Of a stretch of 34,021 nt of DNA, positions 3,960 through 29,007 are shown in pieces. Made by a program: the position numbers and the translations under genes. The stretch lies in the IMG/VR virus record IMGVR_UViG_3300035034_002581. The stretch is one strand, 5' to 3'. The notes under the pieces are model-generated. The model worked only from the letters and a program-made list of their open reading frames with translations. It was not told the origin of the DNA and searched no databases. The stretch's first letter is position 1. Each line of letters begins with the position of its first letter. Source of the stretch: a virus.

Positions 3960-4278
3960 ACAATTTGACTCCTGGAGTCAAAAACCTGAATTTTGATATC
4001 GGAGCACGCGGTCGAATGCTGTCGTATGTATATCTACTATCAGGTCCGAGAAGGTATTGCCGTTTTTTATCATCACAAGGATAAATATTCCCACTTCCTG
4101 ACATGACACGCACTCTATGTCGATACCACGGATAATTATGATCGTCTTTTAATTGCTCCCAATACTCGCTTATGATGATAAATATTCTGTCTTGTGCGTA
4201 CAAATCAAATGTTTCGTCTTCGAATGCCAAAAGAGATGACACATTGTCTGTGTCAGGCAATCGTCTATGCCATCTCAT
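3946..4278 (-). CDS. hypothetical protein (about 110 aa; the track's longer GTG start at 4404 is less likely)
   Basis: The ATG at 4276-4278 has a GAGGGAGAG SD 5 nt upstream and overlaps the ligase stop by only 14 nt. The 4404 start would be GTG with a 140-nt overlap. Confidence 0.5.
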   Translation of the reverse strand: MRWHRRLPDTDNVSSLLAFEDETFDLYAQDRIFIIISEYWEQLKDDHNYPWYRHRVRVMSGSGNIYPCDDKKRQYLLGPDSRYTYDSIRPRAPISKFRFLTPGVKLYGRP

Positions 4279-6202
4279 CAAACTCTCCCTCAGAGATAAG
4301 GGTAATTCCGAGTGCTTTAGCACTCTTAGCTTTGGAGCTCGTTGATCCAACATCAGCGATAATAAGGAAGTCAAGTCCACGTCTGACGCTTGTTTTGTAC
4401 TCACCGCCAGCTTCCGTAATTACAGCTTCGAATTCTTTCTTAGTCCTGCTTAGTTTCCCTGTGATGCAGAAACTCTTTCCTGATAATGGTCCGTTGTTGG
4501 CTTGAGTGTTAATAGGTCCTTCAACGATCTCAAGTACACGATGCAGGTTCTTGATAACAGATTCATTCTTCTTGAGGCCTTCAACAATCAGGCGACCTCT
4601 CTCTTCACCGAATTGCTCAATTGAAGCAATCTGAGATTCAGTAGCAGCGAGCATCTTGTCGCTGGTGTCGTAGCCTGCCTCAACCATCATTCGGGCGAGC
4701 GATCGGCCAAAAGACTTGATGCCAAGTGAACCAATTGCAATACTAAGTGGGATGACCTTCTTAGCGTGAAGATTATTATAAGCACGCTTTGCAATACCAG
4801 GAGAAGTTGCACGTTCAATGTCTGCTTGAGTAAGCTTGTAAATGTCAGCGATGTTGAACACCATCTTACGCTCAACAAGAGCATTGATGACTGATTCGCC
4901 GAAGAACTTCACCTCAATCTTCTCAACCCAGCGTCTAATCGTGCCTGCAAGCAATGCTTCGCAAAGAGGATTGACACACTCAAGGTACTTATTGTCCCAC
5001 ACAAGATCGTTGCTGCACGACGGGCAACTCGCCGGTGCTGCAAAGAACCCGCGAATCTCAAGACTATCCGTTCTCTTGACGACTTGAGGGATCACATCGT
5101 TAGCACGCTTTACAAGCACATCGCAGTTCGGTGCTAAGTTAAGTGCCTTTACATTGTCCCAGTTGTGGAGCGATGCTCTCTTGACTGTTACACCACCTAG
5201 CTCAATAGGCTCAAGAAGTGCAATAGGTGTTACACGTCCGCCTTTGCCAAGGTTCCACTCAATGTCCACCAGCTTTGTTTCACGAGCTTCAGCTTCGAAC
5301 TTCCATGCAACTGCAGACTTTGGATTCTTGCCGCTTCGTGTGCTTGACTGCAGCTTCTTCTCCAGCCTAGCAGCTTCATCCTTACTGTCAACCTTGATTA
5401 CAAGACCATCGATTTCATACGGAAGATTTGCACGCTTTGAACCAACATACTCATTGTAGATCTCAACAATTCGATCGATGCTAGTCACACGTTCATAAAA
5501 TGGAACTTTGTAGCCCGATTCCTCGAGCATCTCGAGAGTACGTGACTCTAAAATATCTGGCAGATCCATGCCATCAAAGTAGTCATAGGCAACAAATGTC
5601 AGAAACTCGCTACCTACGCCGTCGAGGCGTCTTGCAGTTCCAGATGCGCCGTTCCTGGCATTCTTGTAAGGCTCATCTCGCCACTTTCGCTCGACGCAAA
5701 CATCATTGAAGGCATCAAAGTCATCTGCGAACATCATAATCTCACCGCGAATAAAGTGAGGTGTAATATTGTCAACAGAGAATCTATCAGCGCCATTCAT
5801 CTTCAAGACGTTTCGAGTAATATCTTCACCCTTGTCGCCACCGCCGCGAGTTACAGCTCGAAGGAGCTTTCCGTCATTGTACTCGAGGCTGTTAGAGATG
5901 CCATCCATCTTCTCTTGGACACAGTATGCAGATGCTGGTCGCTGACGGAGCCATTCACGAAGCTCTGCTTCAGTGTTAACCTTATCTAGTGACGTCATCG
6001 GGATCTTGTGCTCGATAACTTCCCAGTGTGAGTTGTCATCAACAGGCGCGCCGACTTCAAAAAGTGCAGCGTTGTCAGGTTCAGCAGTGCGAAGCTCATC
6101 TACCCATGCATCGAAAACATCATCATCAACTTCTGGGTTCCCGTTGTAGTAAAGCTCACGATTCTTACGAATCTGACGCTCAAGTTGATTAATTCGACTC
6201 AT
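4265..6202 (-). CDS. ligA: NAD-dependent DNA ligase (LigA-type) with a C-terminal BRCT domain
   Basis: It is 645 aa with a KMDG adenylation motif (EKMDGIS), the LigA-typical layout of OB, zinc-finger, HhH and BRCT regions, and an FCITGKL BRCT signature. ATG with an AAGAGAGGTA SD. Confidence 0.9.
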   Translation of the reverse strand: MSRINQLERQIRKNRELYYNGNPEVDDDVFDAWVDELRTAEPDNAALFEVGAPVDDNSHWEVIEHKIPMTSLDKVNTEAELREWLRQRPASAYCVQEKMDGISNSLEYNDGKLLRAVTRGGGDKGEDITRNVLKMNGADRFSVDNITPHFIRGEIMMFADDFDAFNDVCVERKWRDEPYKNARNGASGTARRLDGVGSEFLTFVAYDYFDGMDLPDILESRTLEMLEESGYKVPFYERVTSIDRIVEIYNEYVGSKRANLPYEIDGLVIKVDSKDEAARLEKKLQSSTRSGKNPKSAVAWKFEAEARETKLVDIEWNLGKGGRVTPIALLEPIELGGVTVKRASLHNWDNVKALNLAPNCDVLVKRANDVIPQVVKRTDSLEIRGFFAAPASCPSCSNDLVWDNKYLECVNPLCEALLAGTIRRWVEKIEVKFFGESVINALVERKMVFNIADIYKLTQADIERATSPGIAKRAYNNLHAKKVIPLSIAIGSLGIKSFGRSLARMMVEAGYDTSDKMLAATESQIASIEQFGEERGRLIVEGLKKNESVIKNLHRVLEIVEGPINTQANNGPLSGKSFCITGKLSRTKKEFEAVITEAGGEYKTSVRRGLDFLIIADVGSTSSKAKSAKALGITLISEGEFDEMA

Positions 6203-7328: not shown

Positions 7329-7619
7329 CTATGATGTTGCGCGCTGCCACTTATTAAGACGAGAAATTCGTGTGGCACCGTGACTGATGATGTGTGATTT
7401 GATCACAGGGAAGAAATACAGGCTCTTTCCCAGTGAACGGGTAATAGTGTCGAGCAAAAATGCATCAGTCACGTGAAGTAGAGCAGGCTCATTATCAGTG
7501 AGTTCGTTCCACTTAGGAATAATCTGTGTCCTAACATACAATTCTGCAATCTGCTTATCAGTGTGACCTTTGAGCTTCAAAATCAAAAAGTACAGGCTCA
7601 TTGTGATTAGGATACTCAT
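7329..7619 (-). CDS. hypothetical protein (96 aa)
   Basis: ATG with an AGAGGAAG SD. Confidence 0.45.
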   Translation of the reverse strand: MSILITMSLYFLILKLKGHTDKQIAELYVRTQIIPKWNELTDNEPALLHVTDAFLLDTITRSLGKSLYFFPVIKSHIISHGATRISRLNKWQRATS

Positions 7620-8032
7620 GGCACTTCCTCTGCTTTGGTATGTAGCGTGATCTCAGAACTTCCGACGTGCTTTGATTCCCCGCTAAAAGTCAACACTAAG
7701 TATGCTGACCGTCTTTTAATCTGCTTGACAGAAACAACAAGCGCTTTATCCCACTTATTCGGATCTTTCCGAATGTAATAAGATCGTGGTCTTGCTTCCA
7801 AATACCCTTTTTTTAGTTTTGAAGATACAATCTTGTCAAATTCGACGCTTGCTAAAACTGGATCGTCGAATTTTTTAACACTTGTTGTTCCACGTGAGTC
7901 AATTGACCCATATTTTGTAGTGTACGACGTGTCGGTAGTTCGTCGAATCATCCAGAATTTATTGCTTCTGCCGCTAATAAACTCTAAGTAGATCGATTTT
8001 TGTTCAACGATATCGCCGGCTTTGATATTCAT
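7616..8032 (-). CDS. WGR-domain-like protein (138 aa from the ATG at 8032)
   Basis: The segment NKFWMIRRTTDTSYTTKYGSIDSRGTT...FDKIVSSKLKKGYLE matches the WGR pattern (KFY/W ... GRIG ... KGY). The ATG sits 2 nt after the upstream stop (TAAGCATG). Confidence 0.4.
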   Translation of the reverse strand: MNIKAGDIVEQKSIYLEFISGRSNKFWMIRRTTDTSYTTKYGSIDSRGTTSVKKFDDPVLASVEFDKIVSSKLKKGYLEARPRSYYIRKDPNKWDKALVVSVKQIKRRSAYLVLTFSGESKHVGSSEITLHTKAEEVP

Positions 8033-8034
8033 GC

Positions 8035-8307
8035 TTAGTCCCAGTCCCATGGGTTTACTGATTCATCGAGCAAGGGTGATGCGTAATTGTCCCAGTCATC
8101 GTTGAGCTGAGCGATCTTCATCTTGTACTTGACTTTCGATCGGTGAATCTTGTTATAGAAATAATTAGATGGGAAAAAGTAGTTCCGTCTGCGGTTGAAA
8201 AAGCCTTCTCGTAAGCTAACGAACTGTCTTGTCTCACCACGTCTGTAGTTGATATGCATGTTGCATTCCTTAGTTAGAGTAACTAATGTATATCGAACCT
8301 CCTTCAT
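8035..8307 (-). CDS. hypothetical protein (90 aa)
   Basis: ATG start. A TATAAT-containing promoter-like region lies in the 76-nt gap upstream. Confidence 0.45.
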   Translation of the reverse strand: MKEVRYTLVTLTKECNMHINYRRGETRQFVSLREGFFNRRRNYFFPSNYFYNKIHRSKVKYKMKIAQLNDDWDNYASPLLDESVNPWDWD

Positions 8308-8383: not shown

Positions 8384-9010
8384 TTAGAACCAGTGCGGTG
8401 CAGGAGTGTGGCGCCAAACAGCGATGGCGCGTTTGTACTTTTTGTAGTATGTTCGGTACGCGTCAATAGCATCAGCACACTTGACATCGTCTGGCATAGC
8501 TAGTGGTGGTTGAACAAACGGAGTTTGTGAAAATGTGCATGGCACGTTAGCAGATAGATGCTCGAGAACATCTTGTGTTTTGTGACGTCGGTGATAACGA
8601 TAAGTGTACTCTTCAGCTAGCGCAATTCCAAGCTTGCATGTATACTCGTAGTTTGCTTTGCTTGAGCGAACCCATACAGCAGTTGGATGATTGATGTGTG
8701 TTGGTGCGTATACTTTAGTGTACATAGAGTCGGGCAGCAACGTAGCACATAGCTTGCGAACTTCTCTTAGATTCATTTCGTATGCTAGATTTTCGTCGTG
8801 CCCTGCAATTCGAAGGTGGGTTGCTGAGATTTCGCGCCAAAGGTCAGCCCACTTGCCGTCCCACGGCATAAGACCATATACTTCAGCCTCATTAATCCAC
8901 TGTGCAGTCGACAGCATCTGCGCCAGCTCTACAATCATTTTTACTGCATGTTTGTCGCAGTGATAACTTGCACAAGTCTTAACATCGTGGTCAAGATAGA
9001 ATAGATTCAT
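8384..9010 (-). CDS. hypothetical protein (208 aa); faint resemblance to pyrimidine-dimer glycosylase / T4 endonuclease V-like proteins, not firm
   Basis: ATG with a GGAGAAG SD. The N-terminal ...ELAQMLSTAQW and the C-terminal YRTYYKKYKRAIAVW...PAPHWF loosely recall the ELADQHLMAEY ... WYKYYGKAI of endonuclease V. Confidence 0.5.
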   Translation of the reverse strand: MNLFYLDHDVKTCASYHCDKHAVKMIVELAQMLSTAQWINEAEVYGLMPWDGKWADLWREISATHLRIAGHDENLAYEMNLREVRKLCATLLPDSMYTKVYAPTHINHPTAVWVRSSKANYEYTCKLGIALAEEYTYRYHRRHKTQDVLEHLSANVPCTFSQTPFVQPPLAMPDDVKCADAIDAYRTYYKKYKRAIAVWRHTPAPHWF

Positions 9011-10019: not shown

Positions 10020-10052
10020 ATTGTATCAAAAACTACATACAATTTGCACACA
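10020..10052 (-). promoter_or_regulatory. promoter-like TGTGTGCAAAT-N16-TACAAT upstream of 9079..9993
   Basis: Member of the recurrent motif family. Approximate coordinates. Confidence 0.45.
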
Positions 10053-10062
10053 TAGCTTTTGA

Positions 10063-10623
10063 CTATTCGTCTCGAGAGCCGATGACATCATGGTATGTCA
10101 CACCTTCTGCAATCATACGACGCTTCAAGATCTTCATCTTCTGCTTGGCACTTCTACGCTTGATGGACGACATGTGCTCAATGAAGGGCTTGCCAAGCAG
10201 GTGATCGAGCTCGTGCTGAAGTGCCTGCGCAAGAAGACCGTCGCCACTTAATGTCTCTGTCGTTCCGTTAAGTGTAGTGTATTCAATCCCGAAAGTTTTG
10301 TGGCGCTTAATCTTAGCCCGCACGCCAGGAAAACTTAGGCAACCTTCCTCTTGCTTTGTCTGTTCTCCTCCTGTTTTGACAGCTTTTGGGTTAATGAAAG
10401 TTTCATACCCATCAAGTGACGGATCAATTGCTTTCGTATTGAGAACAAACATTGAAAGACCTACGCCAACCTGCGGTGCTGCGAGACCAAGTCCTCCAAC
10501 TTGTTCACATGTGTCGACAAGATCAGATGCAAGCTGATGGTGCATGTGTGTAATCTCTGTAATTGCTTTTGCAGGTTCATCAAGCACCTTTGCAGGCCAG
10601 ATTACAATGTTCAGTACTGCCAT
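10063..10623 (-). CDS. def: peptide deformylase
   Basis: All three PDF motifs are present: GLGLAAPQ (motif I), EGCLSFPG (motif II) and HELDHL (motif III). ATG with an AAGGTGG SD. Confidence 0.85.
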   Translation of the reverse strand: MAVLNIVIWPAKVLDEPAKAITEITHMHHQLASDLVDTCEQVGGLGLAAPQVGVGLSMFVLNTKAIDPSLDGYETFINPKAVKTGGEQTKQEEGCLSFPGVRAKIKRHKTFGIEYTTLNGTTETLSGDGLLAQALQHELDHLLGKPFIEHMSSIKRRSAKQKMKILKRRMIAEGVTYHDVIGSRDE

Positions 10624-11157
10624 TTAGACTCCCACCTTAAGCGAGCCCGTCAACCTAATGAACGGCTCTGATGGCTGTTCTTGACAAAATGTTTCAAGAT
10701 TGATCATGCCTAGCAACCCACAGTTTTGTGTACCGACGGAAACCACAAGGTAATTGCCGCTGTTGTTTCGAACGATATCGCCAGGCTTTAGATCCTTTCC
10801 GAAGACAAAGATCGGACAAGTATTCTTAACAACTACAGACAGTTTTCCGCTGGTTGTTTCCAAGTGTTCAACCAAGTGCTCATCCTCCTCTTCACCTGAA
10901 CGGTGGCTAGTCTTATTTTGGCGATGCCAATTCTCAAGCACAATGTTTCTCCATGAACCATTGATCTCTTGTGATGCCCAAAGCATGAATGACTTTATTA
11001 GACAGAAGCTCGGCGAAGGCTGAACCTTATGTGCATTCACACCCGTCAGAGGAACATATGTAACATGCTTTCCATCGTTTTCGACAACATAACGATATGT
11101 GTGTGATCCCCAGCTCTTTGATTTACCTTTGTATACAGTTCCTGCTTTGATTCTCAT
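10624..11157 (-). CDS. hypothetical protein (177 aa), translationally coupled between the VWA protein and PDF
   Basis: ATG with a GAAGGGAGA SD. Its start and stop abut the neighbouring genes. Confidence 0.55.
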   Translation of the reverse strand: MRIKAGTVYKGKSKSWGSHTYRYVVENDGKHVTYVPLTGVNAHKVQPSPSFCLIKSFMLWASQEINGSWRNIVLENWHRQNKTSHRSGEEEDEHLVEHLETTSGKLSVVVKNTCPIFVFGKDLKPGDIVRNNSGNYLVVSVGTQNCGLLGMINLETFCQEQPSEPFIRLTGSLKVGV

Positions 11158-11158
11158 T

Positions 11159-12562
11159 TTATTCTCCCTTCATTTGAATTACAATGTCTGATGGATCGGG
11201 CGTGAAATACAGCTTCCTACCCGGTGCGATGATGTAGCCTCGACGAATTCGTGATGGAGTAGGCTTGCTGCATTCTCCATCAGACAGAATCAAGTAACCA
11301 TCAAAGAGGCCCTTGTTATCGTGGGCGTGGTTCACACATGCCTGGAAGTCTGTACCGCCAGCTCGGAATCGCTCAAGATTAGGCATCGTCTGACCCTTCT
11401 TCCACACAAAACCGTTCTCAACATCCACTTCGGTGTCGAATGGAAAGAAGTGGAACGTAGTCTTCTTGCCAAAGTTACGCAATTCTGCATAAAACAGTGC
11501 TAAAGCTTCATTCGACACTGACCCAGACTGGTCGACGTAGATCGCAATGTTTGCAGTGTAGTTACGTGTACGACCTGGGAAGACATGAGGAAGCTTTCTG
11601 TTAACACGCTTTCTCGTACTCTTTCCGCTAGAGCGACGGGAGCGGCCGAAGAATTGGCGAAGAATTACACGCCAATCCACTTCAGTTGAGACCATAGAAC
11701 GGAGCTGACTTCTCATATGCTGTGGAACTGATCCCCAGGCGTTTGATCCGTCTGCCTTGTTGACTGCGTCTCGCAAGATGTTGGACAATTCTCCTTCAAG
11801 CATCTGTCGAACTCCGTCGGAGATCTCACCCTTAGAATTACCGTTCTCGTCGCAGTCTTGACCCCAATTTCCGTGATCATCTCCGCCAGAAAGAGCACGC
11901 TGTAGTGCTTCACCCAGCATCTCTTCAAGCTTCTGCTGCCTTTCCTCGGCTTCCTTGATCATGTCCTTAACTTCATCGTTTTCCATGAACGCAAAGAAGT
12001 ATTCTTCAGCAGTCAAGAACGGGTCAAACGACTCGACAAGTGTGCTGATCTTCGTAAAGCGTGCCTTCTCCTCGTCAGACATTTCAGCCCAATCTTCAGG
12101 TTCAGGCACCTTCAGCTTCTCACCGGGAATAAAACCACCATCAGGAAGCTCATCGCGAGGGATACTGCAGTTGATTGAGAGATCAGCTGCCCAGTTCCAA
12201 ATCATGTGTGGCTCAAGTGCACGGAACGTTACGTGATCGTAGTTCAAGTGATAGACTTCGTGCTTGAGCAATCCCATTACCTTCTTATGAGAAAGTGACG
12301 CAATGAAGTCTGGGTTCCAGAAGAGTGCTGGGCGCGTGGCCTGGATTCCGACGCCGGCGGTTCCGATCTCACGTGTCTTGTGCCTGTTCATTGCACGATA
12401 GAACGTCGAGAAAAACGGTTCGTTCCAGTAGAGCTGAATGAGGTGTGGTCCGAGGTCAATCTCGTCATTGATAGCACGCTGCTCATCGGTGAGCTTCTTG
12501 CTGATCCCCTTGAACCGCCCAGTACCATCTTCGCCAGTGTTAATCTTTTTGGGTTGAGCCAT
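11159..12562 (-). CDS. VWA-domain protein with an N-terminal putative zincin-like (HExxH) domain; partner of the MoxR-type ATPase
   Basis: It has an HEVYH motif in the N-terminal half and a C-terminal VWA domain with a DxSGS MIDAS motif (YVDQSGSV). ATG with a GAGAGGAGA SD. Confidence 0.75.
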   Translation of the reverse strand: MAQPKKINTGEDGTGRFKGISKKLTDEQRAINDEIDLGPHLIQLYWNEPFFSTFYRAMNRHKTREIGTAGVGIQATRPALFWNPDFIASLSHKKVMGLLKHEVYHLNYDHVTFRALEPHMIWNWAADLSINCSIPRDELPDGGFIPGEKLKVPEPEDWAEMSDEEKARFTKISTLVESFDPFLTAEEYFFAFMENDEVKDMIKEAEERQQKLEEMLGEALQRALSGGDDHGNWGQDCDENGNSKGEISDGVRQMLEGELSNILRDAVNKADGSNAWGSVPQHMRSQLRSMVSTEVDWRVILRQFFGRSRRSSGKSTRKRVNRKLPHVFPGRTRNYTANIAIYVDQSGSVSNEALALFYAELRNFGKKTTFHFFPFDTEVDVENGFVWKKGQTMPNLERFRAGGTDFQACVNHAHDNKGLFDGYLILSDGECSKPTPSRIRRGYIIAPGRKLYFTPDPSDIVIQMKGE

Positions 12563-12587
12563 TTGTATCTCCTCTCTTTACTTAACT

Positions 12588-12631
12588 ATTATAACATATG
12601 TGCCGATGGAATTGCACACCCCATCGGCACA
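12588..12631 (-). promoter_or_regulatory. 11-bp-stem hairpin (TGTGCCGATGG/CCATCGGCACA) whose loop carries GTGTGCAATT, followed by N16-TATAAT
   Basis: It lies in the 85-nt gap between the MoxR-like and VWA genes. It may act as a combined attenuator/terminator and promoter. Approximate coordinates. Confidence 0.4.
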
Positions 12632-12647
12632 TTGTTTTCTTAAGAGG

Positions 12648-13739
12648 TTACGACTGGTTCTTAAGTGCGTCTGCCTTGTCAACAACGTCCATGATCTTCT
12701 TGGTGAAAGAAGTCTTGTGGAAGTTCTGGATGTTATCCATGTTGCTCGATGCCGCAACGTGCTTGAAGACAGTCAAGTAATCCTCACCTGACATCATCTT
12801 AGAGAAGCGCTCAAGGTTGGCGAACTGATCTTCGGTCCAAGTGTTGGCAAGGAGGTGCTCACCAAGCTTGTCGATGACAGAAACCACTGCGTCGTGAGAG
12901 AGTGCCTCAATGTCCTTGATGCGAGCATCGTAGTTGTCGAGAATATCCTCAGCAGACACGTTGCGCTCGAACTTCTGGACGAAGTGAACGAAAGCGGAGG
13001 CAGCTTCAACTCCAACCAAAGAGGTGCAAAGCTGGTAGAAACCAGCAGGAAGTTCGTCTTGGCCTGCACAGTCAATTGGCGCCATCCCGGCGTACTTTAG
13101 ATCATTGTTGACAAAGCCCCACGAACGAGGAGTCGGATGTGCTGACATGGCCTGGATGCTGTCAATATCCTTGTTTCGAAGGTGCTTGCGGTTGGTTCGA
13201 ATGAACTCGATAATGACAGGGTCAATATCTGCACTCGCTGCCCAATCAAGCCAGTCCTCAGCAGTGGGGTCGAAGTGGAAAATAGCGAAGCGGTTGAGCA
13301 ACGCAAGATCCATTTCGTTGACAGAGTAGTTAGAACCTGCGTTGACGCAGGCAATCACACGAGTGCCGGGGTGGAGCTTGTTTCCGTTCATCTCACGGTC
13401 GAGCACGATCTGGAATGCAGCGTTCATGATCTCAGGAGTCGCTCGGTTGAGCTCGTCAAGGAGCATGTTACATGCATTGTCACAACCCTGCTTAAACCAA
13501 TCCACAGGAAGGAACTGAGTAACGTCGTCACTGATGCGGGGGATTCCGATCATGTCACCTTCCGTCATCTGAGCGAGACGGCGGTCAATGAAGGGAATCG
13601 AGCTATCGATTTGGCGGGCAATCTGCGACTTACCGATACCGTGTGGACCGATGAGCAAGATTGCTCGGTTGGTGGGCATAACACGAAGAAGATTGACAAG
13701 GTCCTTCGCATTGATAGTAGGATGGGTCGAACCGGACAT
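12648..13739 (-). CDS. MoxR/CobS-like AAA+ ATPase
   Basis: Walker A is LLIGPHGIGKS, and the length (363 aa) and layout fit MoxR/CobS. It pairs with the VWA gene downstream. ATG with a CTGGAGG SD. Confidence 0.8.
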   Translation of the reverse strand: MSGSTHPTINAKDLVNLLRVMPTNRAILLIGPHGIGKSQIARQIDSSIPFIDRRLAQMTEGDMIGIPRISDDVTQFLPVDWFKQGCDNACNMLLDELNRATPEIMNAAFQIVLDREMNGNKLHPGTRVIACVNAGSNYSVNEMDLALLNRFAIFHFDPTAEDWLDWAASADIDPVIIEFIRTNRKHLRNKDIDSIQAMSAHPTPRSWGFVNNDLKYAGMAPIDCAGQDELPAGFYQLCTSLVGVEAASAFVHFVQKFERNVSAEDILDNYDARIKDIEALSHDAVVSVIDKLGEHLLANTWTEDQFANLERFSKMMSGEDYLTVFKHVAASSNMDNIQNFHKTSFTKKIMDVVDKADALKNQS

Positions 13740-13781
13740 AAGTTGCCTCCAGAGGCGGGTTAGTTTGTTCCTAACTTGTAT

Positions 13782-13812
13782 ATTTTACCATCTGCAGCAA
13801 AAATTTGCACAA
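13782..13812 (-). promoter_or_regulatory. promoter-like TTTGTGCAAAT-N15-TAAAAT upstream of the MoxR-like gene
   Basis: Member of the recurrent motif family. Approximate coordinates. Confidence 0.45.
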
Positions 13813-13823
13813 ATGGAACGCTT

Positions 13824-14054
13824 TTAAAATGACTGAAGAGAATTAGTGCTTACTGTGACTTTTCTGATCAGATGATCAACAGGACCTTCAAAGATCTTAT
13901 CTTCAAACGGGTAATCTCGACCTAGCGGATCTAAAGACACATGCGTGACATAAACATTCCCTTTTGTCGAATGTGGGTTTGAATAAACTTCTACGTCGGC
14001 TCCATTCCTTGCATGTTTAGCAGAGAAGAAGCCATACTGAATCTGATTTGACAT
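13824..14054 (-). CDS. hypothetical protein (76 aa)
   Basis: ATG with an AGGA SD. Confidence 0.45.
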   Translation of the reverse strand: MSNQIQYGFFSAKHARNGADVEVYSNPHSTKGNVYVTHVSLDPLGRDYPFEDKIFEGPVDHLIRKVTVSTNSLQSF

Positions 14055-14065
14055 ATTGATCCTGT

Positions 14066-14806
14066 TTACGGTACGATGTTGAAGCCGTCGGCTTGCAACT
14101 CAAGGTGCTGGTCAAACCCTGCACCACCGAAGCGGTTCTTTGAAGTGAACAGACGACGACAGCCATGATACTCAGACTTTTGGTTATCAATGACCGAGAG
14201 CTCGACGTGAGCATCGCACATGTGTCGAAGCTTGTTACTGCCGTTCATCTTGCCATCTTTATTGACCTGGCCGATGACGAACACGTTGGCATAAGTTTCC
14301 TTGGCATACTCGGTAAGCGCCTTGAGAGCATGCTCAGAGGTCTTTGACGTAATTCTGCCTGAGTTCCAGCGACTGTCTTGCAAGCCCTGAAGGCTGTCAA
14401 TGATGATTACTGGGTGACGGTACTTATTTGCAGAGCACTTGCGGTATCGATCGAACTTTGCAATGAGCGTCCTAACATCCTTCTCTTGGCCCATACCAAA
14501 CTTAGCATCTAGCTTTAGACGCTCGACGGTCATCTTGGTCTGGTATGCTGACTCTTCAACTCCATTGTAGATGACCGCGCAGCCAGATGCCTCAAGATTT
14601 GCTGCAAGTGTCAACATCATGGTTGACTTACCGGCGCCAGGGGTTCCAGTAAAGAGCGTCACGACTGACGGAGTCATTCCCAAGCCACCGAGCGCGACAT
14701 CAATGTATTCTACGCTGGTCGCGATACGACTCTTAAGTGCGGCTGGAACCTCGAGCTCAGAAATATCGGTTCCGAAATCAATTTCGCTTGCAACGTTCAA
14801 ATCCAT
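14066..14806 (-). CDS. RecA-core ATPase (Sak4/RadA-like recombination protein)
   Basis: It is 246 aa with Walker A GTPGAGKST and a RecA/KaiC-like core (VFVIGQVNKDG). ATG with an AGAGGTAA SD. Confidence 0.65.
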   Translation of the reverse strand: MDLNVASEIDFGTDISELEVPAALKSRIATSVEYIDVALGGLGMTPSVVTLFTGTPGAGKSTMMLTLAANLEASGCAVIYNGVEESAYQTKMTVERLKLDAKFGMGQEKDVRTLIAKFDRYRKCSANKYRHPVIIIDSLQGLQDSRWNSGRITSKTSEHALKALTEYAKETYANVFVIGQVNKDGKMNGSNKLRHMCDAHVELSVIDNQKSEYHGCRRLFTSKNRFGGAGFDQHLELQADGFNIVP

Positions 14807-21485: not shown

Positions 21486-22268
21486 TTACTTGACCCCTTG
21501 CTGTTCAGTTTTTGTACGAATCTCAAGTACATCTACTTCAGACTGAGTAATTCCATATTGGATGTAATCCTTTTCATCCTCGGTAATACCGAAGCGAAGA
21601 CGAACAATCTTTTCCTCCCTTGGGCTAAGTGACGACAAAGCATCACGAACTGCAGAGATCATCTTCTCCCTGTCAATTGCTTCAATAGGGCTAAAGCTTT
21701 TTGTATCTGGAATTACGTCCTCGAGCTTTCTACCTCCCGATGAGTCGTCACCGATCGGTGTGTCTAGCGAAACAGTAGGTCGGCCTGATGTCATCGTTGT
21801 CTTGACTACATCAACAGATACTCCTAGGATTTCTGCAATCTCTTCTGGAGTCGGAGCTGTTTCAAACTCTTCCATGTACTCCTTTTGTAGCTGCATAATC
21901 TTGAACATGAGACCAGACGCATGAGCTGGCATTCTGATTGTGCGTGAATGAGATGCGATGTGACGACTTACAGCCTGTCGAATCCACCAAGAGGCATAAG
22001 TAGAAAACTTAAAGCCTTTGCGCCACTCAAATCTGTCGACTGCCTTGATAAGTCCAATGTTTGCCTCTTGGATCAAGTCTTCGAGTGAACACCCTCTATT
22101 CTGATACTTCTTTGCAATACTGATCGCCAATCGAAGATTTGATTGCACCATCAGGCTATGTGCATGTTTGTCACCCTTTTCGATCTTCTTAGCGATCTCT
22201 TGCTCTTCCTCCCGAGAAAGTAGTTTGTATCTGCCAACGCTCTTAAAGTAGCTGTTTAGAGCATTCAT
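21486..22268 (-). CDS. sigma-70 family RNA polymerase sigma factor (regions 1.2 to 4) with a divergent region 4.2
   Basis: Region 2 is canonical ([41 protein letters not shown]). Region 3 and region 4.1 (VRLRFGI) are present. The 4.2 recognition helix reads [11 protein letters not shown] instead of TRERIRQIE. The ATG at 22266-22268 has a GAGGTG SD. The track's GTG at 22274 overlaps that SD. Confidence 0.85.
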
Positions 22269-22309
22269 TTTCACCTCACATTCAATTGCGAACTAGTAGT
22301 TTTGTAATC

Positions 22310-22722: not shown

Positions 22723-23436
22723 TTAAAATACCCAACCTTGTCCATGAAACCCACAACAGCGGAAGTCAATCCCTTCATGCTCTTCAACTTGATATGCCTT
22801 GAAGATGTGATGATGACCGAACAACCACAATTTAGGCTTATGTTCTGAGAGCCTGAGGATCATGTCAAAAGCGCGAGGAGTTGGATCATCAAAACGGCCA
22901 GTACGATAAATATCCACTGTGTACGGTGCGTCATGAGTTACCACCACTTCTGGCTTGTGTAAGTTGAAGTTGTCATTAAACAACTCTAAATCTTCGCGAC
23001 TCGGATCTTCTTGAGGCCACCAGACTCTGTGACCGCTTTTTGTAAAATCCCCTCGACCGTCTTGACGATCTGTCGACTTTGCACCTCCGCAGAAGATATG
23101 AGATTTACCGTCAATCTCTAAAACTGTTCCTCGCTTAACATGAAAACAATTAGGAGCAACTTCTACTACACCGGAGCCGTCTGACTCTGCATGTAGAGCG
23201 TCAAGTGCATCGTGGTTGTCGTGATTTCCGTCGCAGAAGTACCAGGGTGCAGTATAGATCCCGCGCTTGGTCCTCTTTTCAAAGTATGACACCATCTTCT
23301 TGCCGCCGCCAGGCCACAGAATGCCAAAGTCACCTACTTGTACAATTGCTGAGTGGGCTTCTTTTAATGCCTCTGTTTCAATTCGATGAAAGTGCTTTAG
23401 GTAGCCGTGTGTGTCACCAGCGTAAAAAATACTCAT
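22723..23436 (-). CDS. calcineurin-like metallophosphoesterase (second copy)
   Basis: It carries the GDTHG, GDFGI, GNHDNHD and GHHH motifs. ATG start. Confidence 0.75.
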   Translation of the reverse strand: MSIFYAGDTHGYLKHFHRIETEALKEAHSAIVQVGDFGILWPGGGKKMVSYFEKRTKRGIYTAPWYFCDGNHDNHDALDALHAESDGSGVVEVAPNCFHVKRGTVLEIDGKSHIFCGGAKSTDRQDGRGDFTKSGHRVWWPQEDPSREDLELFNDNFNLHKPEVVVTHDAPYTVDIYRTGRFDDPTPRAFDMILRLSEHKPKLWLFGHHHIFKAYQVEEHEGIDFRCCGFHGQGWVF

Positions 23437-26011: not shown

Positions 26012-27812
<1,801 letters not shown>

Positions 27813-28209: not shown

Positions 28210-29007
28210 TTATCTTACAAGGCTTGAAAATGTGGCGGTCCATTTATTCCAAGTTTTCTCTTTAGTCATACTATCGAATTCAAACTCTTGGAATTTAGAT
28301 CTAAGCGAATCCCAGTCTCCATTTCCCTTAAAGGTAGTCAAACCATCTACTTCGTGGAGCATGTCTTGAAGTTGAATGAGAGAGAAGTTGCGCTCTTGTT
28401 GCATCTTAAAGTTTTCATCCTTCATTCTTTCTGCTAACAAGTCTGGGTTGTTAACAAGTTTTTCTGCCGTCTTGTCACCAATACCTTTGATGCCCGGAAT
28501 GTTATCAGTCTTGTCTCCTCGAAGAGACTTCCACAGCAAGTAGTTGTAGTCAGGAGCAGGAACGACTTTTTTCTTAATTGGATGCCAAATTGAAGTATTC
28601 TCTAGGTCGTCGTAGACCTGAATAAAGTCTGTGTCCGTCGAGACAATAAAGACGTCGTTTTCACTGTCGTATTTCTTAGCAAGAGAATAGATGACATCAT
28701 CAGCTTCATAGTCTTCATGGCGAATAGACGTAATAGGCATCAGTTCTCTCATCAGTTTCTCAATGATGTCACGTTGCGTTCTAAACGTTTCTGGAGAGCG
28801 CTCTCTATTGCCCTTGTAGTCTGGAAGTAGAGTCTGATTGCCTTTGGGAATGCCTTCAAGTACGAAGTATGCCACATCAGGATTGATCTTTTCTACAATC
28901 GGCCTTAAACCTCTAAAGAAGTTGAACACAATATTGTGTTCACCTTTTCCAAACCCGAATCGTGCGCGATGCATCAAGTTGTATGCGTCTAAAATTAAAA
29001 CTCTCAC
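28210..29007 (-). CDS. flap endonuclease / 5'-3' exonuclease (T4 RNase H / Pol I 5'-nuclease family)
   Basis: The N-terminus VLILDAYNLMHRA, the acidic clusters (DVFIVSTDTDFIQ) and a helix-3-turn-helix GIKGIGDKTAEKL are typical of FEN/53EXO. The start is GTG, with an AAGGAG SD 7 nt upstream. Confidence 0.8.
   Translation of the reverse strand: MRVLILDAYNLMHRARFGFGKGEHNIVFNFFRGLRPIVEKINPDVAYFVLEGIPKGNQTLLPDYKGNRERSPETFRTQRDIIEKLMRELMPITSIRHEDYEADDVIYSLAKKYDSENDVFIVSTDTDFIQVYDDLENTSIWHPIKKKVVPAPDYNYLLWKSLRGDKTDNIPGIKGIGDKTAEKLVNNPDLLAERMKDENFKMQQERNFSLIQLQDMLHEVDGLTTFKGNGDWDSLRSKFQEFEFDSMTKEKTWNKWTATFSSLVR

Follow-up and report, generated by a model that had tools for sequence, protein, structure and literature searches.

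A MoxR-type ATPase and zincin-VWA gene pair of the N4 gp24/gp25 family beside a peptide deformylase gene in a large uncultured marine phage

The locus contains four adjacent genes on one strand

The virus record IMGVR_UViG_3300035034_002581 from IMG/VR is a stretch of DNA 34,021 nt long that we refer to as the window. According to the open reading frame (ORF) listing, all of its genes are on the minus strand. We examined positions 10063 to 13812 of the window, where there are four consecutive minus-strand ORFs at 13739-12648, 12562-11159, 11157-10624, and 10623-10063, as had been proposed in an initial annotation made from the sequence alone. In the order of transcription these are predicted to encode a MoxR-type AAA+ ATPase, a protein with a zincin metallopeptidase domain and a VWA domain, a 177-aa protein, and a peptide deformylase. 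The initial annotation treated the four genes as one coupled unit and suggested that they function in nascent-chain or protein maturation. Taken as a whole, we consider it fairly probable that the locus contains a conserved module, formed by the MoxR ATPase and the zincin-VWA protein and acting in the replicative phase of infection, and that the deformylase is a separate auxiliary gene.

The ATPase and zincin-VWA protein are related to N4 gp24 and gp25

The first gene (12648-13739, minus strand) is predicted to encode a protein 363 aa long that we assign to the MoxR-type AAA+ ATPases of the AAA_5 type and the N4 gp24 family, using Pfam, phrog_1297, tblastn, and motif residues. It matched Pfam AAA_5 with an E-value of 1.7e-11 and 44.7 bits (cut-off 22). 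The match to phrog_1297 was full length (1.6e-59), with residues 8-350 of the protein aligned to profile positions 8-350 of 356. Residues in the Walker A motif (GPHGIGKS; G31, G34, G36, K37, and S38) and the Walker B motif (LDE; D95 and E96), together with N133 and R150, were invariant or nearly so across 11 homologues that included N4-like gp24. Using the ATPase as a tblastn query we obtained matches in 776 phage records. The top matches were from N4-like phages, where the matching protein is annotated as similar to N4 gp24 and the gene that follows the gp24-like ATPase is a gp25-like gene for a "VWA-like domain-containing protein". In the window, the ATPase and VWA genes are separated by a spacer of 85 nt.

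For comparisons across viruses we used two sets of related loci. The close relatives are L004 and L005 (64% identity in the VWA protein), L006 and L007 (56%), and L008 (55%). The more distant set is made up of 80 IMG/VR loci (L009-L088) in which the VWA homologue is 36-45% identical and for which flanks of up to 8 kb were available; at least 3 kb of downstream sequence was present in 47 of these loci and at least 3 kb of upstream sequence in 60. In 67 of the 80 distant loci, the VWA gene is immediately preceded by the ATPase gene.

The second gene (11159-12562, minus strand) is predicted to encode a protein of 467 aa that belongs to the N4 gp25 family. It is comprised of a zincin metallopeptidase domain (HEVYH...H, residues ~40-135) followed by a helical linker and a C-terminal VWA domain with a metal ion-dependent adhesion site (MIDAS). 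Pfam identified DUF2201_N, described as "putative metallopeptidase", at residues 44-322 (1.8e-19, 70.8 bits against a cut-off of 23.2) and, C-terminal to it, DUF2201, described as "VWA-like", at residues 339-418 (28.4 bits against 26.4). The protein also matched phrog_1314 (2.8e-48). The initial annotation had allowed that HEVYH might be a chance match. Alignment of 69 homologues at 41-65% identity showed that H101, E102, H105, and H110 are invariant, as are N123, D127, and N131, and all seven residues are likewise present in gp25 of an N4-like coliphage. The HExxH motif is therefore real, and the conserved residues after it offer a candidate for a third zinc ligand. In the MIDAS, D344, S346, S348, and T404 are invariant in the same alignment and D428 is nearly so. 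This strict conservation of both the catalytic and the MIDAS residues suggests that both predicted activities matter.

The AlphaFold model of the zincin-VWA protein had a predicted local distance difference test score (pLDDT) of 81.5. In the model, the N-terminal domain is a small sheet plus helices in which HExxH lies within a helix (residues 92-107) after a three-stranded sheet; this domain is followed by a long helical linker with a disordered acidic insert and then by a VWA fold. The top Foldseek match in the PDB was the VWA domain of CLCA1 (E = 7.4e-04), and the fold matches also included the VWA domain of NorD. Against predicted viral structures, full-length matches were found in Bacillus phage PBS1, Pseudomonas phage Zuri, a Klebsiella N4-like phage, cyanophage S-TIM5, a Ruegeria N4-like phage, and a crAss-like virus, and ORF892 of Acidianus two-tailed virus (ATV) was the match at rank 40. 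A sequence search of the PDB returned no solved relative, the best match having an E-value of 0.23.

We observed that PHROG 1314 and many RefSeq records (NC_049350, NC_021540, NC_031104, and others) label members of this family "HNH endonuclease". The original GenBank entries read "metallopeptidase domain protein" and Pfam found no HNH domain in the family, so the label looks like a propagated mis-annotation.

From these matches, the pair is the N4 gp24/gp25 family (PHROG 1297/1314, DUF2201_N+DUF2201), of which the window carries a divergent marine member. Thus, the identification of a MoxR-type ATPase with a VWA partner in the initial annotation held up in Pfam and PHROG searches alike.

A hairpin and a promoter-like site separate the ATPase and VWA genes

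The spacer between the ATPase and VWA genes contains a predicted stem-loop (12593-12636, minus strand). Its core stem of 15 pairs, two of which are G-U, is formed by positions 12632-12618 and 12612-12598 and is closed by the loop GUGCA (12617-12613). A 98-nt stretch that includes the hairpin had a folding energy of -32.5 kcal/mol (z = -5.7), and none of 200 shuffled sequences was as stable. On the coding strand, no other 44-nt hairpin anywhere in the window is as strong. The hairpin is followed by the tail AUAUGUUAUAAU, which lacks a run of U residues, and a terminator scan made no call there. Because the U-run is missing, this is not a canonical intrinsic terminator. Elsewhere in the window we observed two canonical intrinsic terminators on the minus strand (29619-29576 and 17597-17554), each with a G+C-rich stem followed by 7-9 U; a GTGCAA promoter site comes directly after the second.

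A promoter-like site for the VWA gene overlaps the hairpin (12588-12617, minus strand). Its upstream hexamer, GTGCAA (12617-12612), lies in and beside the hairpin loop and its -10 hexamer, TATAAT, is at 12593-12588, with a spacing of 18 nt between them. The -10 hexamer agrees with the consensus and is preceded by TG, forming the extended -10 element TGTTATAAT. GTGCAA agrees with the -35 consensus TTGACA at three of six positions, and a scan for consensus sigma-70 promoters made no call at this site. The motif GTGCAA-N15-20-TAnAAT occurs in nine exact copies in the window, all on the coding strand, compared to 0.14 expected by chance. On the minus strand these copies are at 31027-30998, 23658-23630, 17562-17534, 16622-16593, 14881-14852, 13810-13782, 12617-12588, 10049-10020, and 6257-6228, and each lies 20-45 nt before a start codon that has a ribosome-binding site. 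The copy at 13782-13810 (GTGCAA-N17-TAAAAT) is 43 nt before the ATG of the ATPase gene at 13739, and the copy at 10020-10049 (GTGCAA-N18-TACAAT) lies 3' of the deformylase gene and 5' of the next gene (9993-9079); both are exact matches to the motif. The initial annotation had described a stable hairpin between these two genes with a -35-like element in its loop, and these numbers bear that description out.

The motif, in the form GTGCAA(A/T)-N15-20-TAnAAT, is also found on the coding strand in distant marine relatives, for example L012, L018, L025, L050, and L079. In many distant relatives there is typically one copy before the ATPase gene and one about 50-100 nt before the VWA gene. This recurrence makes it look like a clade-wide class of promoter whose upstream element is unusual. 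Among the window's genes is one for a sigma-70-family protein of 262 aa (21486-22274, minus strand) with good matches to regions 1.2, 2, and 3 and a weak, partial region 4. Because its region 4 is weak, this phage sigma factor is a candidate for the protein that reads the GTGCAA element. Upstream of the sigma factor gene there is a strong imperfect hairpin (22653-22610, -22 kcal/mol).

We compared 40 distinct ATPase-VWA spacers 41-400 nt long. The spacer hairpin ranked between first and fourth in its locus in 14 of them and was first in eight, and in seven spacers a strong hairpin ended between -3 and +4 nt from a TAnAAT. The same junction in L004 holds a hairpin that differs in sequence, retains the GTGCA loop, and abuts TGGTATAAT, which contains TATAAT. 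AT-rich lineages have no spacer hairpin and keep a TATAAT in the spacer. These comparisons suggest that the hairpin has been evolutionarily maintained and that the placement of a hairpin within a promoter-like site is a conserved regulatory detail. The hairpin loop is the only place that can hold an upstream promoter element without disturbing the stem. We read the hairpin as an element that limits read-through, possibly as an attenuator, or that stabilizes an mRNA end, and that overlaps a promoter at which transcription restarts. Across the related loci the two genes usually have separate promoter-like sites and often have a strong hairpin between them, which suggests dosage control, making the differential expression of the ATPase and VWA genes that had been proposed from the window sequence plausible.

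From the start of the VWA gene to the stop codon of the deformylase gene we found no copy of the promoter motif and no hairpin followed by a U-run. Therefore, the VWA, 177-aa, and deformylase genes are probably carried on one transcript, and the site at 10020-10049 would mark the next transcription start after this block. This goes against independent transcription of the deformylase gene, a possibility that the initial annotation had raised.

The deformylase shares the neighborhood of the pair in one sub-lineage

The fourth gene (10063-10623, minus strand) is predicted from Pfam, NCBIfam, and motif matches to encode a type 1B-like peptide deformylase 186 aa long with a basic C-terminal extension. 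It matched Pep_deformylase with an E-value of 3.6e-41 (140.8 bits), TIGR00079 with 130 bits (cut-off 104), and NF001159 with 135 bits (cut-off 125). Its translation contains all three catalytic motifs, GLGLAAPQ, EGCLS, and QHELDH, as had been noted in the initial annotation. Compared to E. coli Def, the enzyme is 34% identical through the C-terminal helix region, and its basic tail of 45 residues aligns with the region of the C-terminal helix by which E. coli Def docks on the ribosome. At least 52 of 70 marine viral deformylases do not have that helix. Peptide deformylase is a widespread auxiliary gene of marine phages (PMC3660681).

The junctions in this part of the locus are tight. A single base lies between the stop codon (TAA) of the VWA gene and the start codon (ATG) of the 177-aa gene, which is preceded at 8 nt by GGGAG, and the TAA of the 177-aa gene abuts the ATG of the deformylase gene (0 nt), with GGTGGGAG upstream as a Shine-Dalgarno sequence. 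Thus, the close spacing on which the idea of a coupled unit was based is present. However, at 17 of the 36 gene junctions on a matching metagenomic contig the genes overlap or are separated by no more than 5 nt. Such close packing is therefore usual in this genome; it does not mark the ATPase, VWA, 177-aa, and deformylase genes as a unit and carries little functional weight.

The relatives provide a mixed picture of where the deformylase gene is located. Neither the window enzyme nor E. coli Def, used as queries, detected a deformylase in the flanks of any of the 80 distant loci, even at E ≤ 1. Among the close relatives, L004 and L005 have the order ATPase, VWA, one or two ORFs of ~50 aa, deformylase. 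The deformylase of L008 is 4.5 kb upstream of the pair, directly after a RadA-like gene. L006 and L007 have an HNH gene after the VWA gene and no deformylase within 6 kb. In N4-like phages the pair is kept with no deformylase beside it. From this picture, the deformylase shares the neighborhood of the pair in one sub-lineage only and at varying positions. The union of the deformylase with the pair in one nascent-chain or maturation system, as put forward in the initial annotation, is not supported by the distribution of these genes.

The third gene (10624-11157, minus strand), encoding the 177-aa protein, belongs to a rare family with five members that is predicted to be all-beta. Searches of Pfam, PHROGs, PADLOC, and NCBIfam gave no match, so the Pfam search suggested for this ORF placed it in no family; the same search of the VWA ORF had returned both DUF2201 domains above cut-off. 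Exhaustive HMMER searches found two full-length relatives and a profile search found two more, all 158-165 aa long and ~30% identical. HMMER matches to RTX, PKD, and lipoprotein-repeat proteins were rejected as beta-hairpin noise. A word-indexed homologue search returned only the protein's own fragment, no further family member turned up in viral or JGI metagenome contigs, and the family profile gave no significant match among PDB sequences, where an N-terminal fragment of proteasome Rpt5 had an E-value of 0.18. A single-sequence AlphaFold model had a pLDDT of 34. Because the N- and C-terminal beta-rich motifs are conserved in all five proteins, this is a real, very rare gene family.

The four relatives are all on contigs of 0.9-1.7 kb. 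The homologue on one of these (L089) begins 8 nt past the C-terminal end of a DUF2201 VWA gene, and the gene after it is an ORF of 56 aa rather than a deformylase. The other three have unrelated small ORFs on both sides and no VWA gene within the short contigs, which include 450-510 nt of upstream sequence. Thus, the family is found beside a VWA gene in two of five cases, and the 177-aa protein may be an accessory of the VWA protein. No homologue was found in the close relatives L004-L008, and the gene therefore occupies a variable slot.

The pair lies among replication, nucleotide-metabolism and transcription genes

Upstream of the ATPase gene is a gene predicted to encode a RadA/Sms-like ATPase of 246 aa (14066-14806, minus strand). 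It contains the RecA-fold domain only, matching TIGR00416 (sms) at 8.3e-26 over model positions 73-264 of 454 and giving KaiC, AAA_25, and DnaB_C matches in Pfam. A RadA-like homologue was found in the flank of 48 of the 80 distant loci; it was upstream of the ATPase gene in 33 of these and in 31 was at a regular distance of 356-420 nt. The link between the RadA-like gene and the pair is far more conserved than the link between the deformylase and the pair. The RadA-like ATPase is thus a conserved neighbor of the pair that lies outside the four-gene unit of the initial annotation.

An ORF of 76 aa (13824-14054, minus strand) lies between the RadA-like gene and the promoter-like site of the ATPase gene. 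A homologue is found in the same slot only in L004 and L005 (4e-12). In an AT-rich lineage (L028, L041, L046, L051, L058, L064, and others) a different ORF is conserved in the gap between the RadA-like gene and the ATPase gene. Its product of ~111 aa is strongly hydrophobic, resembles a small membrane protein, and is unrelated to the 76-aa ORF.

Other repair and replication genes in the window, all on the minus strand, are predicted to encode an NAD-dependent DNA ligase (4265-6202), a WGR-domain protein (7616-8050), a phrog_624 "DNA binding protein" with a faint match to pyrimidine-dimer glycosylases (8384-9010), a calcineurin-like phosphoesterase (22723-23436), and a 5'-3' exonuclease (28210-29007). 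On the same strand, ~12 kb from the pair, is a gene for a GroEL-type chaperonin of 536 aa (26012-27622; Cpn60_TCP1 3e-70, phrog_5725 4e-153). The phage therefore carries three proteostasis-type functions, namely GroEL, the deformylase, and the MoxR pair. In L004 the deformylase gene is again followed in turn by the genes for the phrog_624 protein, the WGR protein, and the ligase.

In the window, the neighbors of the pair include the RadA-like ATPase, the NAD ligase, the 5'-3' exonuclease, and the sigma factor. In an N4-like phage they are dCTP deaminase, ThyX, and rIIA, and in Salicola phage SCTP-2 they are DNA polymerase I-like and GreA-like genes. The context of the pair is replication, nucleotide metabolism, or transcription, and not structural, in every context we examined.

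One end of a metagenomic contig of 179.6 kb, the contig used above for the gene junctions, matches the window, as does an 18-kb contig from a second sample. Positions 1-2272 of the window extend ~2.3 kb past the end of the 179.6-kb contig, and the window therefore comes from another assembly of the same phage that is longer or differently permuted. The span of at least 180 kb and the presence of its own GroEL, sigma-70-family protein, NAD-dependent ligase, and 5'-3' exonuclease indicate that the source is a large uncultured phage. Many of the related loci are on contigs of 200-290 kb. The DNA of the region had no match in 50,697 phage records and no close cultured relative was found there; the best protein identities to isolate phages were ~24-30%. 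Scans for Rfam families and for tRNAs gave no match in the window.

Discussion

We propose that the pair is a two-protein machine that works while the phage genome is being replicated. The module shares its GTGCAA-N17/18-TAnAAT promoters with genes for replication, repair, and transcription, leading us to expect that it works during the replicative phase and not in the virion. By analogy with RavA/ViaA, NorQ/NorD, CbbQ/CbbO, and midasin, the ATPase would form a ring on which the VWA partner docks. The metal site of the MIDAS could then clamp an acidic residue, either in a client protein or in the ATPase. Hydrolysis of ATP would remodel the client, and the tethered zincin domain might cut the client or the partner itself. 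The target would be a phage or host protein. The hairpin after the ATPase gene probably limits read-through or stabilizes the end of the ATPase mRNA, so that the doses of the two proteins would be uncoupled. In a narrow lineage, a deformylase gene would have landed behind the VWA gene and come to be co-transcribed with it, and the enzyme would remove N-formyl groups from nascent chains independently of the pair.

Several points weigh against this proposal. All three of the close lineages that bear a deformylase have it within ~5 kb of the pair, and there may be a loose functional link between the two in this sub-lineage. The flanks that we covered extend to 8 kb at most, and in distant genomes a deformylase may sit elsewhere. 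The distance of only ~12 kb to GroEL lends the region a proteostasis flavor. For the whole gp24/gp25 family we infer the substrate and even the proteolytic activity, and it is uncertain whether the spacer hairpin, lacking a U-run, has terminator activity.

The pair has been proposed to act in virion assembly, as a chaperone and as a processing protease for structural proteins, a role modeled on the MoxR/VWA pair of ATV (Iyer et al. 2021). This proposal was made for an identical architecture (PMC7824862), the ATV VWA protein ORF892 is among the structural matches that we obtained, and a place among the core proteins of N4-like viruses (PMC7650795) is what would be expected of an essential morphogenetic function. 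For the phage studied here we regard this as possible but unlikely. The pair is situated amid replication, nucleotide-metabolism, or transcription genes and outside of the structural module, and its promoters are of the same type as those of neighboring replication genes. To our knowledge, no proteomic report lists gp24 or gp25 as a component of the N4 virion.

It is also unlikely, and to a slightly greater degree, that the role of the pair is counter-defense or host takeover, in which it would capture and inactivate a host protein such as an immunity factor. In phage Bas54, a MoxR ATPase that is not required on E. coli K-12 is needed against the predicted defense system DS-28 (bioRxiv 10.1101/2025.11.20.689424). 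Distant matches to the window ATPase, at ~26% identity over half of its length, occur in rV5_ev147 and slur16, which are members of Vequintavirus related to Bas54, and the pair lies within an early/middle gene region. Yet the ATPase of the vequintavirus slur16 has no recognizable DUF2201 partner adjoining it and may therefore not be the same system. We also considered whether an "HNH endonuclease" near the MoxR gene of a vequintavirus is a hidden DUF2201 protein; it had no Pfam match and was dropped. PADLOC defense models gave nothing meaningful for the ATPase/VWA pair, and accessory genes of this kind are usually variable, whereas the pair is core in N4-like phages. This alternative overlaps with the replicative-phase module that we favor and differs from it only in naming the substrate.

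A single maturation system made from all four genes is improbable. In such a system the deformylase would unblock N-termini, the pair would remodel or trim the same substrates, and the 177-aa protein would be an adaptor. Junctions of 1 nt and 0 nt and a VWA-to-deformylase interval free of promoter motifs and U-run terminators are what this would predict; however, tight junctions are usual in this genome (17 of 36). The closest relatives (L004/L005) also have the VWA gene followed by short ORFs and then the deformylase, the deformylase of L008 is 4.5 kb from the pair, the 177-aa homologue of L089 again follows a VWA gene, and GroEL is within the window. Set against this, 0 of 80 distant loci bearing the pair and neither L006 nor L007 have a deformylase, the 177-aa protein is absent from L004-L008 and three of its four relatives are without a VWA gene in their short contigs, and N4-like phages retain the pair with no adjoining deformylase. 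The four genes probably do not make up a single machine for protein maturation. Making the deformylase part of the system of the pair is a tempting story that comparative genomics does not bear out.

Based on the gene neighborhood, it could be supposed that the RadA-like ATPase, the MoxR ATPase, and the zincin-VWA protein are a trio that forms an ATP-driven protease acting on DNA-bound proteins in phage replication or recombination, with the deformylase and the 177-aa protein being later add-ons in the sub-lineage. All three genes are present in 48 of the 80 distant loci as well as in the window. The functional analogy would be with the eukaryotic zincin proteases Wss1 and SPRTN, which work with the AAA+ ATPase Cdc48/p97. 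We consider this very improbable. Finally, that the proteins are chelatase subunits of the CobS/CobT type with a chance HExxH, which the initial annotation had entertained and to which a weak, partial match of the ATPase to phrog_249 "porphyrin biosynthesis" (1.6e-08) might point, is refuted for practical purposes by the Pfam, PHROG, and conservation results, since the best ATPase match is the full-length one to phrog_1297, the partner matches DUF2201_N/DUF2201 and no CobT family, and HExxH...H is invariant across the family.

Comparison with known systems

The deformylase resembles those of other marine phages, such as cyanophage S-SSM7 and vibriophage VP16, in being a type 1B-like enzyme with three intact motifs that is encoded by an auxiliary gene (PMC3660681). 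It differs in retaining the basic C-terminal extension, whereas at least 52 of the 70 compared above have lost the helix.

CLCA1-type proteins are an analogy only. As in the VWA protein of the window, a HExxH metalloprotease and a MIDAS-bearing VWA domain are joined in one chain, and CLCA1 cleaves itself. However, CLCA1 is eukaryotic and secreted and has no AAA+ partner, and only its VWA domain was matched.

RavA/ViaA, NorQ/NorD, CbbQ/CbbO, and p618/ORF892 of ATV are similar to the pair in that the gene for a MoxR-type ATPase is beside the gene for a VWA partner bearing a MIDAS. In contrast to the window protein, the cellular and ATV partners are without an N-terminal zincin domain, and these systems act in cofactor insertion, complex maturation, or tail development. 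Pfam and NCBIfam found no sequence-level family match between the pair and the cellular MoxR/VWA families.

The ATPase/zincin-VWA pair itself is already known. In 2009, gp24 and gp25 were noted as "AAA ATPase" and "vWFA" with function unknown (PMC2784036), and both have since been counted as core proteins of N4-like viruses (PMC7650795). In group 2.2 jumbo phages, a MoxR AAA+ ATPase with a metallopeptidase-vWA fusion as its partner was described by Iyer et al. (2021), who proposed a role in virion assembly and processing (PMC7824862). Compared by description, the domain architecture and pairing in those jumbo phages are identical to what is found in the window, but the virion-assembly role fits poorly with the gene neighborhood in the window.

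The N4 (Schitoviridae) gp24/gp25 pair shares with the window both protein families, gene order, adjacency, the Walker motifs, HExxH...H, and a DxSGS MIDAS. It differs in that identity is just 24-28% and the window proteins are longer; the VWA partner is 467 aa with an acidic helical insert, compared to ~390 aa in N4 gp25. The source of the window is also a phage of at least 180 kb with its own sigma factor and GroEL and not an N4-like podovirus. A gp24/gp25-type pair is among the few proteins common to all N4-like phages and is also found in jumbo, cyano-, Bacillus, and crAss-like phages. In the contexts covered here it accompanies replication genes, often including a RadA-like ATPase, and not structural genes.

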